Below, one piece after another: positions 45,705 to 61,685 of a DNA stretch of 61,758 nucleotides. A model generated the notes under the pieces. It ran no database searches and was not told the DNA's origin. It worked only from the letters and a program-made list of their open reading frames with translations. Numbering within the stretch: position 1 is the stretch's first letter; every line of letters begins with the position of its first letter. A program made the position numbers and the translations under genes. The stretch is taken from the NCBI GenBank assembly GCA_964515685.1, contig CAZEWA010000003.1:1-61758 (forward strand), written 5' to 3'. The DNA comes from an uncultured Polyangiales bacterium. Its GTDB lineage: Bacteria > Myxococcota_A > Polyangia > Polyangiales > DASUME01.

Positions 45705-47330
45705 CTAGGACTCTTCGAGCTCCTGCGTTCGGAGCAAGATGCTCCCGTCGGAGACGGAGATGACTTGCTCGTCTTTGTTCGCGACGCGGCGAATATCCAG
45801 CACGGGCTTGGCCTCTCGGTAGTGGTGTTTGACGGAGGTTCCATCGTCGATCTTCTTGCCGAGCAGGAGGTGGTTGCCCTGGCTCTCGGCAGGCAAGCGC
45901 GCGTCCTTTCGCCAATCGAGGAAGCCTACGATGCGAGCTGACTGAAAGTGGATTTCCAGCAGCACTCGCTGGTCTCGGATCGCAGGGAAATAGAATTGCC
46001 CGGGAGCGAAGAGGGGTTCGTACGGTGCGATCACGACAGCGTCGTCCCACAGGGGCACCTTGACGCGATAGTAGTCGAGGGATGTGTCGTCGTCCTTGTT
46101 GGCCTGGTAGGTCCCCTGATCCTCTTCGCCGATCTCGCTGACGACCATGCCTTCAACGAAGATGGGCCAGTGAGGCACTTCGAACGAACCCATCCGCGGC
46201 GCGGTATCGCTCGCGCGCTCAAGCTCCGCGTGGAGGCTGCCCTCATACGTGTTGGCGTCGTCGTCTAAGCTGTCTACGGGGTTCTGGTTCGTGGCGCGCA
46301 GGTCGGCGTGCAGTCGGCGCATCCAGTGAGCTTCCCCGGCTTGCAGAGCGTGGGCGCTCCACTTGGCCCCGAAGGCGTAGGTGAAGCCCGGTCGCACGTT
46401 GCCACGTGGGAAGCGCGAGAAAGCCACGTGCAGCTCTCGATCTGGAGAGATGCTGCGATCCTTCTCCAGCGAGGCCCGCGCGTCGAGATCGGAAGCTATC
46501 GCGGAGCGCATGAGAAAGTCACTGCGGACGCCGGAGACGCTGTCGGTCGCATCGATACTCTTGACCTTGGTGGCCGCCAGGGTCGAACCGTTGAGTACGC
46601 GAGGGGTCGCGCGGGAGCGGACCGGAAAGAACACGCGCAGGGAGGCTGTTTCGTCCGGTCTCAGGTCGTCTCCCTTGCCGAGTGGAATGCGGTTCGACCC
46701 GAGCCGGTATTCGAGCTTTTCGGCGTCGTACTGCAGATAGCCTCCCTCCGTGTAGGTGAGCCATCGCGTGAAGTCGTAGAAGGACGCACGCAGGTCGCCC
46801 GCGTCCAAGCCCAGGCAGATCACGGGCCGCACCTCGTTCAAGAAGGGCCACTCGTACTTCAGCTCGACGCCCTCTGGCAGATTGGCCCCGAACATGTCGG
46901 CGAGGGTCTTGTCGCAATACAGGGCGCACGGTCTGTGCTGGGCCCAAAGAACGGCGAGCTTGTCGGCGAAGCGCACATTGTAGCGCCGCTGCATGATAGG
47001 GGAGCCAGAAAGGTCCTCGAAGGCCCGCTCCGAAAGCTCGCGGGTTGTCACCAGGCCCTTGAGCACGACGGGCGCGACGACCCCCGCCTCGTCATCGTAC
47101 AGGGGCTCCAGGTTCAAGGTCGCCTCGATCAGATCGTTCTCTACGAAAGGTTCCTTGAGCTTGTCCTCCGATGGGTCGCGCAAGCTCACGTGCCACCACG
47201 TCACGTCTGCTTCAAAGCCCTGCGCCGTCCAGTCGAAGGCCATCGCCTTGATGTTTCCGCCGGGAACGCTGAAGTCCTTGCCGCCGATCGTGAGTTTCAA
47301 GGATGCTCGCAGTCGACTTCGGAGCGTCAC
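45705..47330 (-). CDS. vgrG: VgrG-like spike/hub protein (gp27-like plus gp5 OB-fold), short C-terminus
   Basis: 541 aa. The N-terminal pattern LKLTIGGKDFSV...FEADVTWW...RRYNVRFADKLAVLWAQHRPCALYCDKTLADMF parallels the VgrG gp27 region. YYRVKVPLWDD...GQFYFPAIRDQRVLLEIHFQSARIVGFL parallels the gp5 OB-fold. GTG start with GTGA overlap onto the tssE stop. Confidence 0.65.
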   Translation of the reverse strand: MTLRSRLRASLKLTIGGKDFSVPGGNIKAMAFDWTAQGFEADVTWWHVSLRDPSEDKLKEPFVENDLIEATLNLEPLYDDEAGVVAPVVLKGLVTTRELSERAFEDLSGSPIMQRRYNVRFADKLAVLWAQHRPCALYCDKTLADMFGANLPEGVELKYEWPFLNEVRPVICLGLDAGDLRASFYDFTRWLTYTEGGYLQYDAEKLEYRLGSNRIPLGKGDDLRPDETASLRVFFPVRSRATPRVLNGSTLAATKVKSIDATDSVSGVRSDFLMRSAIASDLDARASLEKDRSISPDRELHVAFSRFPRGNVRPGFTYAFGAKWSAHALQAGEAHWMRRLHADLRATNQNPVDSLDDDANTYEGSLHAELERASDTAPRMGSFEVPHWPIFVEGMVVSEIGEEDQGTYQANKDDDTSLDYYRVKVPLWDDAVVIAPYEPLFAPGQFYFPAIRDQRVLLEIHFQSARIVGFLDWRKDARLPAESQGNHLLLGKKIDDGTSVKHHYREAKPVLDIRRVANKDEQVISVSDGSILLRTQELEES

Positions 47331-47719
47331 GACACGTTCCTCGGCTTCTCGCCCACGTGGATCTCCGTGCGCCGTGGGTTGCAGATCACGAAGAGGGACA
47401 CGCCGCTGGTGAGGACTCGGCAGTGGGCGAGCACCATCGCCTCTTGGGTGTCGTCGTCGAAGACCTCGTCACAACGCAGGATCTCGAGCCGCCTCTCGTA
47501 GAGCCCCACGTTCTCCCTGATTTGCAGGCTGATCTCCGACACCATGGTCTGGACCGTGCCGTAGCCAGTCGTGGAGAGCCCATAGTTTTCGCGAAACGAG
47601 CTGCACCCTCTGCGGGCCACGAACATGGCTCGCAGGTTGAGGAGTATGTCCTCGAGCTCCAGGGCGGCAGGACTCTTCATGGGCTCGGGTTTGGCGATGA
47701 AGTGCTTTCGAAGGAACAT
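47327..47719 (-). CDS. tssE: T6SS baseplate wedge protein TssE (GPW/gp25-like)
   Basis: LELEDILLNLRAMFVARRGCSSFRENYGL...ISLQIRENVGLYERRLEILRCDEV matches the gp25/TssE pattern. I prefer the ATG at 47719 because GGAG lies 7 nt upstream; the track start is 47743. Confidence 0.65.
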   Translation of the reverse strand: MFLRKHFIAKPEPMKSPAALELEDILLNLRAMFVARRGCSSFRENYGLSTTGYGTVQTMVSEISLQIRENVGLYERRLEILRCDEVFDDDTQEAMVLAHCRVLTSGVSLFVICNPRRTEIHVGEKPRNVS

Positions 47720-47733
47720 TGCGCGGCTCCTGG

Positions 47734-48846
47734 TTAGCGCCAAAGGTGATCGTGACGTGGCTTCGAAGAAAGCCGCGTGCGCTCGCTCGCGCTGTAGACG
47801 AGCTCATCGTCCGGGGGGCGGTCGTCGCATATCCCGTCCGCGGTCGGGTCCCCGGTGTTTCCCTCAAACAGGATGATCCTCTGGCGTGGGCCGACAAGAC
47901 TCTCCCAGATGCGTGTGGCCTTTCTCTCTGGATCTCCGCGCCAGGGATAGCGGACATCGAGCGGAATCTCGCCCAGTACGCGGTCATACCCGAGGACCGA
48001 GTACCCTTCTCGTGTGGGCGCCGATGTCTTGCTGATGACGGCGCTGGTGCGATGGGGCAGATCGAGCTCGACCTGCAGCGGAAGCCGGAACGGTCTCAGA
48101 AGCGGCATCAGCGTGCGCGACAGGCGCGCACGCACGAGATCGTACCAGCGTTCTCCGTGATCGTGGTACTCGTCCGCGGCGAAGAGCCTGACCGCGAAAC
48201 CCGGCGCGACAGTCTCGAACACGTGCCCCACCACGGCTGTGCCGTCGAGCCGAGATGAGCCCGTCCTCGCTCCAAAGCTCTGGTTGTGCTCAGGCTGAGC
48301 CATTCTCCGTACCTCGACGATGAACTCGGGGAAGAGGCTGTGAAACAGCCAGTGCAAGGTGCTCATCGAGGCCGTCCCCAACGCATGAAGCAGCGCCCGC
48401 TTGGTGCGGCCCCAGTCCTCGAAGACGAGCCCATCGGTTTCGGGAGAGATGGCACGCGCGTAGTTGTCGAGCAGCTTGTGCTCGAAGAACCGGAAGAATG
48501 AGAGCATCCGATCGGGATCGGGACTTGTCTCCAGTATGCCCTGGAAGTAGCTCGGAAGGAGTCCATGGCCGCCCCACAGGCCGATGTTGAGTGTGATGGT
48601 GACGTAGTCGCTCGCCGATTGGGCGTCGGGCGCGCTGAAGGAGCCAATGTCGTGGCGGCTCCAAAACTTGACCGACTCCACGAGCGATCGCGCAGAGTGT
48701 GAACCCGGATGGCTCTGCAGGAAGGTCCGCTCGCGGGCGTACCCTTGCGCGGCCAAAAGGCGCAACAGGGCGGGTAGATCGAAGTCACGCGCCCGCTGCG
48801 TCACGCGTCTCTCGAAGGCCTGGCATGGAAGCGCCGCGGCTTTCAT
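47734..48846 (-). CDS. tssG: T6SS baseplate protein TssG
   Basis: 370 aa. DFDLPALLRLLAAQGY, ITLNIGLWGGHGLLPSYFQGIL, MLSFFRFFEHKLLDNYARA and LFPEFIVEVRRMAQ follow the conserved TssG blocks. Confidence 0.7.
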   Translation of the reverse strand: MKAAALPCQAFERRVTQRARDFDLPALLRLLAAQGYARERTFLQSHPGSHSARSLVESVKFWSRHDIGSFSAPDAQSASDYVTITLNIGLWGGHGLLPSYFQGILETSPDPDRMLSFFRFFEHKLLDNYARAISPETDGLVFEDWGRTKRALLHALGTASMSTLHWLFHSLFPEFIVEVRRMAQPEHNQSFGARTGSSRLDGTAVVGHVFETVAPGFAVRLFAADEYHDHGERWYDLVRARLSRTLMPLLRPFRLPLQVELDLPHRTSAVISKTSAPTREGYSVLGYDRVLGEIPLDVRYPWRGDPERKATRIWESLVGPRQRIILFEGNTGDPTADGICDDRPPDDELVYSASERTRLSSKPRHDHLWR

Positions 48847-61224: not shown

Positions 61225-61226
61225 GC

Positions 61227-61568
61227 TCAGGCTTCTTTCGCCCAGACAGCCTCTACGCTCTCGGTCCGATGGCCTCGGCCGGGGCGTCTTCGTCGGCGTG
61301 GAGGCGAAAGCTCGCGCGCTTCGGGCAGAGTCTCGCTCGCCTTCAGCGTGTCGCCGAGCGCGAAGTTCCCCAAGGTACCTCGGCAGGTGGCCTGCTCCGA
61401 CGACCCATCGCGACGGCGAAACAGGAGGGCCGCGACGGTGGCGTCATAGCTGCGGTCTTTTCCCACGCCGCGCCACGGCAGGTTGCCGCGTGCAGCGTAC
61501 AGTTCCAGAGTACGCTCTCCAACGAGAAATTCGTTGCAGATGAGGTCCGTTTTGGCCCATCTCTCCAT
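61227..61568 (-). CDS. Hypothetical small protein, first gene of the upstream T6SS-like sub-operon
   Basis: ORF with its stop 2 nt before the start of the 220-aa gene and good third-position GC. I prefer the start MERWAKTDLICNEF (61568); the track start is 61646. No motif recognised. Confidence 0.4.
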   Translation of the reverse strand: MERWAKTDLICNEFLVGERTLELYAARGNLPWRGVGKDRSYDATVAALLFRRRDGSSEQATCRGTLGNFALGDTLKASETLPEARELSPPRRRRRPGRGHRTESVEAVWAKEA

Positions 61569-61685
61569 TGCACGTCTCCCAGCGCTGCGGTAGTGGGAAC
61601 TGCTTACAGGTATCCTCTCGATACGTCGACTTTTCGACGTACTCATTGGCTGAAGTCATGAACAATCCAAATGCTTTCGAGTACC

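Follow-up and report, generated by a model that had tools for sequence, protein, structure and literature searches.

A myxobacterial type VI secretion cluster from a lineage that is probably the closest known relative of the Francisella T6SSii

Gene content of the locus

We examined a stretch of 61,758 nucleotides from an uncultured Polyangiales bacterium (contig CAZEWA010000003.1 of assembly GCA_964515685.1; 'the window' denotes the whole of this stretch), the right-hand part of which encodes components of a type VI secretion system (T6SS). An initial annotation, made from the sequence alone, had described positions 45705-61646 as a rearranged, highly divergent T6SS-like locus with unexplained extra genes. 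Its account of the layout was borne out by the open reading frame (ORF) list and by a base-level check of the gene junctions. Thirteen co-directional genes lie on the minus strand between 45705 and 61568, in two blocks (61568-57468 and 56428-45705), and the 1039-nt gap between the blocks is occupied by a single plus-strand gene (56453/56531-57430) for a Cys-rich lipoprotein. All ORFs of the locus are open, and their junctions are either translationally coupled or closely spaced; four of them are 4-nt overlaps, namely GTGA at 58752-58755 (TssF/DotU), ATGA at 52565-52568 (TssM/TssJ), ATGA at 50266-50269 (596-aa gene/DUF4280 gene) and GTGA at 47327-47330 (TssE/541-aa gene). The features, from right to left, are as follows.

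61658-61758, plus strand: 5' end of a gene for a putative tube-protein paralog of ~203 aa, cut by the window edge (translation MNNPNAFEYQCNWRF... matches an ORF on contig L001, described below)
61227-61568, minus strand: 113-aa protein (called also on L001; stop codon 2 nt before the VgrG start)
60562-61224, minus strand: small VgrG of 220 aa, beta-helical needle only (matches of family profile A3)
58752-60533, minus strand: TssF, 593 aa (Pfam T6SS_TssF, 6.5e-27)
57826-58755, minus strand: TssL/DotU, 309 aa, with a C-terminal transmembrane helix (Pfam DotU, 3.2e-12)
57468-57836, minus strand: 122-aa helical protein, a divergent member of a lineage-specific family whose genes always come directly after dotU (family profile, 8.1e-11)
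56531-57430, plus strand: Cys-rich lipoprotein, 20 Cys, lipobox LAAC (sequence inspection)
52565-56428, minus strand: TssM (IcmF/PdpB-like), 1287 aa (Pfam IcmF-related_N, 6.2e-6, just over cut-off)
52059-52568, minus strand: TssJ-type outer-membrane lipoprotein of the IglE kind, 169 aa, lipobox LLGC (Pfam IglE_N, 3.9e-11)
50266-52056, minus strand: 596-aa protein with a predicted adenylate-forming (ANL) fold and no ATP P-loop (profile and structure-model searches)
49883-50269, minus strand: DUF4280 PAAR-like tip of the IglG kind, 128 aa, 6 Cys (Pfam DUF4280, 3.4e-34)
48847-49854, minus strand: IglI-family protein with an ImpA_N/TssA-like N-terminal region (NCBIfam NF041244 IglI_fam, 6.8e-64)
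47734-48846, minus strand: TssG, 370 aa (Pfam T6SS_TssG, 1.8e-4, under cut-off)
47327-47743, minus strand: TssE (gp25-like), 138 aa, likely start at ATG 47719 (Pfam GPW_gp25, 7.4e-4)
45705-47330, minus strand: PdpA-like hub of the spike, 541 aa, corresponding to the gp27 portion of a split VgrG (profile A2 matches 6u9e_A)
43316-45130, minus strand: Ser/Thr protein kinase, 604 aa (Pfam Pkinase, 1.2e-34)

A one-genome-per-species scan yielded 139 related loci, and 84 loci were analysed (80 kept from that scan and four obtained through protein look-up). Each locus spans +/-10 kb, and the gene counts from tblastn given below are lower bounds.

Searches with Pfam and NCBIfam profiles, together with homologs from one related locus (L038), upheld the earlier assignments of TssF, TssL, TssM, TssJ, a TssA-like protein, TssG, TssE and a DUF4280 protein. 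The statement that these genes are recognisable only at motif level undersells TssF, the DUF4280 protein and the IglI-family protein, with the E-values listed above. For TssF, the NCBIfam models TssF (3.2e-25) and IglH/TssF (1.8e-7) both fall under their cut-offs; 53 other homolog clusters were found, all at most 40% identical, and a look-up of the exact window sequence returned no record. The window TssG, which extends further at its C-terminus than relatives of 285-300 aa, is linked to 49 loci by tblastn, and TssE is matched under cut-off by NCBIfam TssE (8.9e-4) as well as by GPW_gp25. These two weak calls hold because the homologs at the same positions in L038 pass the cut-offs (TssG 2.4e-8, TssE 7.5e-16).

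The membrane complex is represented by the full TssJ-TssL-TssM set. The lipoprotein is of the IglE kind and not of the SciN kind: it scores 43.7 bits (cut-off 26) against IglE_N, a Pfam model built on the Francisella TssJ-like protein. The 1287-aa TssM is also matched by NCBIfam TssM (0.0012). It lacks a Walker A motif, with GAAGSVTE in the corresponding stretch, and the pattern G....GK[ST] is kept in 20 of 23 TssM family sequences (the 23 include the window copy, itself without the motif).

The IglI-family ORF encodes ~335 aa if read from the ATG that has a ribosome-binding site (GGAGAG), and 357 aa in its longest form, which reaches to 49920. It scores 216.5 bits against IglI_fam (cut-off 100), a model whose name suggests that it is centred on Francisella IglI; the partial IglI ORF from Francisella gave E 0.06 in our comparisons. 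Weak likeness to TssA comes from three sources: the family profile (A4) matches the TssA-like structure 6rju (1.1e-4), TIGR03362 matches the Syntrophus homolog (7.1e-5), and ImpA_N, the only recurrent Pfam family, is matched by 13 of 24 members.

The contractile part and the conserved gene set

Within 45705-61646, neither the ORF list nor profile searches revealed a gene for TssB/TssC, Hcp, TssK or ClpV, as the initial annotation had also noted, and no T6SS genes lie to the left of the locus within the window. Two alternatives had been offered for this: either the contractile part lies beyond the right edge, or the region is a membrane-complex, baseplate and spike module of an undescribed T6SS lineage. 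The first is correct. A 5-kb contig from another sample (L001) encodes an identical 220-aa protein, overlaps the window by 1896 nt with 11 differences and reaches 3157 nt past its right edge. Read outward, it carries first the 203-aa gene, in the opposite orientation, then TssK (TIGR03353, 258.7 bits, over cut-off), a paralog of that first gene (217 aa) and the 3' end of tssC, whose product is represented by its C-terminal 180 aa (VipB_2, 2.6e-33) ~3 kb to the right of the window. The 203-aa gene has its initial 33 codons inside the window (61658-61756, plus strand), where it runs divergently from the T6SS block and outside the coordinates of the initial annotation, which had missed it; the family that it forms with its 217-aa paralog between tssC and tssK is alignment A5. 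From their position and size, the 217- and 203-aa proteins are putative inner-tube subunits. The cluster is thus contiguous across the right edge, directly beyond which come TssK, the two putative tube genes and the sheath.

A stand-alone membrane-complex, baseplate and spike module with no contractile tail, or a decaying remnant, would agree with the lack of sheath, TssK and ClpV genes between 45705 and 61646 and with a TssM devoid of Walker A. We regard this as very improbable, since the contig of a closely related strain has TssK, two tube candidates and TssC <3.2 kb past the right edge, a tube paralog starts in the window itself, and the complete gene set is conserved across phyla. Decay was ruled out separately: the ORFs are intact and coupled, and the VgrG gene differs between the window and the L001 strain by three substitutions, every one synonymous. 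On these grounds we read the cluster as intact.

Myxococcota, Desulfobacterota and some Planctomycetota carry the same gene set, in 80+ genomes altogether. Relatives include Polyangiaceae metagenome-assembled genomes, Sorangium, Chondromyces apiculatus, Myxococcus eversor and many Corallococcus, as well as Syntrophus buswellii, Desulfobacter vibrioformis, Smithella and Planctomycetota metagenome-assembled genomes. Among the 84 loci, tblastn matches were obtained for the 220-aa gene in 82, DotU in 78, TssK in 63, the 541-aa gene in 61, TssG in 49, TssJ in 44, and the 596-aa and IglI-family genes in 42 each, and full TssB and TssC are found in related loci. In neither the 61.7-kb window nor the 84 loci does any ORF have the pair of AAA+ Walker A motifs expected of ClpV.

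Gene order in the lineage is modular, with blocks permuted between orders. VgrG and TssF are adjacent in 76/79 loci, TssF and DotU in 74/78, and TssC, the tube gene and TssK in 36-37 of 37. The ~10 kb between tssF and tssG, listed initially as a broken feature, is therefore nothing of the kind: TssF beside DotU, not beside TssG, is the norm here, and the corresponding genes are also neighbours in the Francisella island. Nor is the region a private rearrangement with unexplained extras, the 596-, 220- and 122-aa genes being conserved in the lineage. Three of the four minus-strand orphans are accordingly conserved parts of the cluster, and the fourth, the 113-aa gene, keeps its orphan status: it is local, without a Pfam or NCBIfam match and with weak tblastn matches in just 4 related loci, all of them more distant.

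The 122-aa protein gave no tblastn match in the 84 loci and none in Pfam or NCBIfam. A hidden Markov model (HMM) built from 43 post-DotU ORFs nevertheless matches it at 8.1e-11 (Z=1), and hhalign links the two at 89.7% probability (E 1.8e-6). A role for this helical protein as an assembly accessory of TssL is speculative.

The plus-strand lipoprotein gene does split the two blocks, as originally proposed. Its longest ORF starts at GTG 56453, and ATG 56531 precedes the signal peptide. No homolog was detected in the 84 related loci, nor any Pfam or NCBIfam match, and by these searches the gene appears specific to the locus of the window genome. In a close relative (L004), this place, behind the small gene after dotU, is taken by a gene for a lytic transglycosylase (SLT; 12827-13597, plus strand), which may be an accessory for remodelling peptidoglycan.

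The 596-aa protein belongs to a family whose public names are 'hypothetical protein' and whose gene, in the loci examined, always lies inside the T6SS cluster of the lineage. It follows tssJ in Desulfobacterota and directly precedes the DUF4280 gene in Myxococcota, including the window, where the two overlap. The family profile matches ANL enzymes only in the A1-A2 motif region (7.5e-14), with weak matches to the ANL C-terminal domain as well. An AlphaFold2 model, built from a 4-sequence alignment with a mean predicted local distance difference test (pLDDT) score of 57, gave Foldseek matches to ANL proteins (2e-16, probability 1.0, TM-score about 0.35), and the top 50 hits were ANL enzymes throughout. 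A word-indexed search with the family alignment found only 4 relatives, and an exhaustive profile search was used instead; it returned 328 clusters at E<=1e-30, and among the best 150 listed almost all measure 550-600 aa.

As in acyl-CoA synthetases, the adenylation domains of non-ribosomal peptide synthetases and luciferases, a two-domain fold is predicted and the A1/A2 region is conserved. Unlike those enzymes, the family is embedded in a T6SS cluster and lacks the A3 P-loop: the pattern [ST]SG[ST]TGxPK, even when relaxed, was found in 0/153 database members and 0/23 locus members, and a control ANL protein (P0059) carries TSGTTGPPK. In the consensus of the family alignment (A6), we saw neither a clear A7 Asp nor a clear A10 Lys motif. 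Because the ANL match and model coincide with absence of the P-loop from all 176 members examined, the 596-aa protein is predicted to be a pseudo-enzyme, a non-catalytic ANL-fold subunit that is a conserved, lineage-specific component. A separate 521-aa ORF elsewhere in the window (4347-5912, minus strand; N-terminal …LSYAELDALANRFARAF…) resembles a typical adenylate-forming enzyme with an A1 motif and appears unrelated to this T6SS-associated protein.

Relationship to the Francisella T6SSii

A fragment of the Francisella island (L085), found through a PdpA peptide, carries pdpA-pdpB-iglE-vgrG-iglF-iglG-iglH-dotU-iglI. HMMs of our lineage match six of its proteins, at 2e-7 to 2e-23: DotU (2.4e-23), IglG (5.2e-20), PdpA (7.2e-10), PdpB (4e-8, by the TssM model), VgrG (2.2e-7) and IglE (4e-7, by the TssJ model). 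IglH (0.012) and the partial IglI ORF were marginal, and IglF was not matched. A direct hhalign comparison of the TssF family with IglH did no better than E 0.063 (probability below 1%), which leaves the NCBIfam IglH/TssF match as the only usable link for that pair.

Profile A3 of the 220-aa family, whose window member the initial annotation had called a beta-helix protein, matches the VgrG beta-helix 8gra_I (1.8e-7) and, over nearly its full length, 6u9e_B (1e-5), which is the VgrG chain (189 aa) in the solved complex of Francisella PdpA and VgrG; NCBIfam T6SS_TssI_Fran matches the window protein under cut-off (0.0023). It is thus the VgrG needle. The 541-aa protein, labelled VgrG-like, is conserved and better described as a PdpA-like hub: the sole significant match of its family profile (A2) in the PDB is Francisella PdpA (6u9e_A, 1e-6), with similarity limited to ~100 residues. 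It has no Pfam or NCBIfam match, and its single-sequence AlphaFold2 model (pLDDT 31) was discarded without a fold search. No ORF searched matched Phage_GPD/VgrG, the fused gp27-gp5 form. From these profile matches the hub would pair with the 220-aa needle in a spike split into two proteins as in Francisella, where PdpA is the hub bearing a VgrG of ~165 aa. NCBIfam T6SS_IglG matches the DUF4280 protein (3.3e-15) in an alignment confined to IglG positions 57-170. Corallococcus and Myxococcus loci (L049-L083) contain a second, longer PdpA-like hub paralog (about 640-690 aa), ~2-3 kb downstream of tssJ on the opposite strand, which suggests alternative spikes, possibly with different cargo.

The sheath points the same way. 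The best PDB match of the lineage TssC is IglB, at 422 bits versus 317-350 for T6SSi sheaths, and in a neighbour-joining tree IglB grouped with the lineage against three T6SSi sheaths in 200/200 bootstraps. IglB is 39-45% identical to lineage TssC and 29-35% to T6SSi sheaths; the lineage sheath is itself 35-43% identical to the latter, the Myxococcus xanthus structure 5urw being the lowest-scoring solved sheath.

Beyond the split between PdpA-like hub and small beta-helical VgrG, the IglE-type lipoprotein, the DUF4280 tip, the IglI-family protein and the IglB-like sheath, the two systems share a cluster without ClpV and the position of the tube gene or tube candidate, which stands between the genes for the large sheath subunit and TssK. 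The lineage candidates have 190-220 aa, and IglC is of about that size. Shared gene orders are iglA-B-C-D with TssB-TssC-tube-TssK, pdpB-iglE with TssM-TssJ, and iglH-dotU with TssF-DotU. Both also have a gene for a protein of ~580 aa just upstream of the DUF4280 gene. In the lineage that protein has a predicted ANL fold and does not detectably resemble IglF: comparisons with IglF of the Francisella fragment by hhalign, HMM and Pfam gave nothing (E 0.5-0.9), and a counterpart relationship, which we rejected as an assignment, is speculative, surviving on position and size.

Other differences are equally plain. TssE, TssF, TssG and TssK of the lineage match canonical models, whereas their Francisella counterparts do not (PMC9600919). 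The lineage hub has 541 aa versus 820 aa for PdpA, and the window DUF4280 protein lacks the N-terminal helical extension of IglG. PdpC, PdpD and PdpE were not found in the window or the examined loci, with no reference sequences compared. The hosts are free-living Myxococcota, Desulfobacterota and Planctomycetota rather than an intracellular pathogen.

Relative to canonical T6SSi (Pseudomonas aeruginosa H1, Vibrio cholerae, Myxococcus xanthus), the lineage shares TssB/C, TssE/F/G/K, TssJ/L/M and a TssA-like ImpA_N region, and its TssC and TssK pass the canonical NCBIfam cut-offs. It differs in lacking a fused VgrG, a Pfam Hcp, a TssJ of the SciN type and ClpV, in the placing of TssF beside DotU and not TssG, and in the additional conserved ANL-fold protein and 122-aa family.

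These comparisons bear on whether the cluster is an ordinary subtype-i T6SS with diverged proteins, in which the likeness to Francisella is long-branch or compositional noise. TssC and TssK scores above the canonical equivalog cut-offs of NCBI, and canonical Pfam matches for TssF, TssG, TssE and DotU, would be expected from such a system. A 2026 survey with TXSScan, moreover, has a TssC tree in which T6SSii falls inside the T6SSi radiation, and it reports a T6SSii in Dongshaea too (PMC13098142); automated tools probably already count clusters like ours as T6SSi. We nonetheless judge this explanation unlikely, on the strength of the spike split as in Francisella with no fused gp27-gp5 VgrG, a tube without a T6SS_HCP match, a TssJ recognised by IglE_N and not SciN, the missing ClpV, the IglI-family protein and the bootstrap support that joins IglB to the lineage. 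The earlier suspicion that the lineage is not canonical subtype i stands.

Further from the evidence, an extracellular contractile injection system (eCIS) or T6SSiv-like phage-tail element, not anchored in the membrane, might be considered from the DUF4280 and gp25-like proteins, which occur in eCIS too, and from the unrecognisable tube protein. The presence of TssJ, TssL and TssM, a VipA/VipB-type sheath and T6SS-type TssK, TssF and TssG makes this hardly credible, and we ruled it out on the membrane complex and sheath. T6SSiii of Bacteroidota, which has TssN/O/P/Q/R instead of TssJ/L/M, was ruled out likewise by the presence of TssJ, TssL and TssM.

We therefore favour, with a probability of roughly 0.8, the reading that the region is the larger part of a contiguous, intact T6SS cluster of a Polyangiaceae-like myxobacterium, and that its lineage is the closest known relative of the Francisella T6SSii, with a canonical-looking baseplate and TssK. 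Several observations weigh against this reading. The NCBIfam models specific to Francisella all score far under their cut-offs (bits/cut-off: TssI_Fran 17.9/100, IglH 30.4/75, IglE 16.6/75, IglG 56.4/200). TssK lends no support to a Francisella link, because the PDB search gave a weak match to canonical TssK and none to IglD. The tube family (217/203 aa) has no match in Pfam, NCBIfam or the PDB, including Hcp and IglC, and IglF shows no similarity to the ANL-fold protein, whose own model is of low quality. L001 ends inside tssC, so that TssB of the window genome does not fall within it. The sheath tree holds three T6SSi references and no T6SSiii sequence, and a placement as 'sister of T6SSii' is provisional. 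Because the Francisella equivalog and exception models score under their cut-offs, the window cluster is best classed, by its sequence matches, as a relative of T6SSii and not as a member in the narrow sense.

Surroundings, proposed function and implications

The left flank of the locus consists of the Ser/Thr kinase gene, 574 nt downstream of the last T6SS gene, and then of ABC transporters and metabolic genes. Four related loci (L007, L013, L021, L035) likewise have kinase homologs nearby. PpkA-type kinase control exists in some T6SSi, and by analogy the adjacent kinase may regulate firing, a suggestion made on adjacency only. A promoter and terminator scan of the region gave a number of sites not above chance. 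One sigma-70-like site (56491-56463, minus strand; TTGACA, 17 nt, AAGAAT; 10/12 matches) lies ~35 nt upstream of the longest tssM ORF and may be the promoter of the second block, such sites being no commoner in the region than by chance. Elsewhere in the window, at 22221-27082 (minus strand), are three tandem paralogous lipoprotein genes (559, 506 and 538 aa) with 28-32% identity (BLASTP E 3e-18 to 5e-54) and Asp/Gly/Ser-rich N-termini; the middle one alone has a Pfam match (Rhodanese).

Following established T6SS biology, TssJLM would anchor a baseplate of TssE/F/G/K, the TssA-like IglI protein would prime tube polymerisation inside the TssB/C sheath or coordinate that of tube and sheath, and contraction of the sheath would expel the tube together with the PdpA-like/VgrG/DUF4280 spike and any bound cargo. 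Among the genes of the cluster we could assign none as an effector. Because the cluster encodes no ClpV, we propose that the contracted sheath would be recycled by housekeeping ClpB, on which Francisella also relies (PMC5481754). Most probably the ANL-fold protein serves as a non-catalytic adaptor or assembly subunit, acting on the DUF4280 tip or with the TssM-TssJ complex. More specific roles are speculative: an adaptor or cargo on the PAAR-like tip, as for IglF on IglG in Francisella (PMC5014421), or a membrane-complex factor.

Reviews published up to August-September 2026 recognise four T6SS subtypes, with subtype ii restricted to the genus Francisella and devoid of TssA (PMC13584744, PMC13577199, PMC12955703), and the Francisella island has been hard to interpret, many of its proteins having no detectable relatives (PMC2660368, PMC9600919). 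Our literature searches found no description of the present lineage or of its link to Francisella. Calling it undescribed is correct in that sense and goes too far in another: such clusters are public in many genomes, with names of the kind given by the Prokaryotic Genome Annotation Pipeline for TssF and an NCBIfam IglI-family model that covers the 357-aa protein.

The lineage joins parts hitherto associated with Francisella (PdpA-like hub, small VgrG, IglE, IglG, IglI) with canonical-looking TssE, TssF, TssG and TssK, and its hosts include bacteria that are tractable and in culture, among them Corallococcus, Myxococcus eversor, Sorangium, Chondromyces, Syntrophus buswellii and Desulfobacter vibrioformis. 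Tentatively, and with odds we put at short of even, the lineage could be a free-living sister of the Francisella T6SSii and, with its recognisable baseplate, a bridge for decoding the Francisella orphans, in which IglI would be the missing TssA, PdpA and VgrG an ancestral split spike, and a dead ANL fold a recruited core subunit, possibly the IglF counterpart that loads the PAAR-like tip. Questions that become testable are the origin of the Francisella system, the role of IglI (given its ImpA_N-like region here) and the assembly of a split spike, and a new one is what a 328-cluster family with the fold of a dead adenylate-forming enzyme does in a secretion machine. For myxobacteria and syntrophic Desulfobacterota, the finding points to a second, unstudied contact-dependent weapon.

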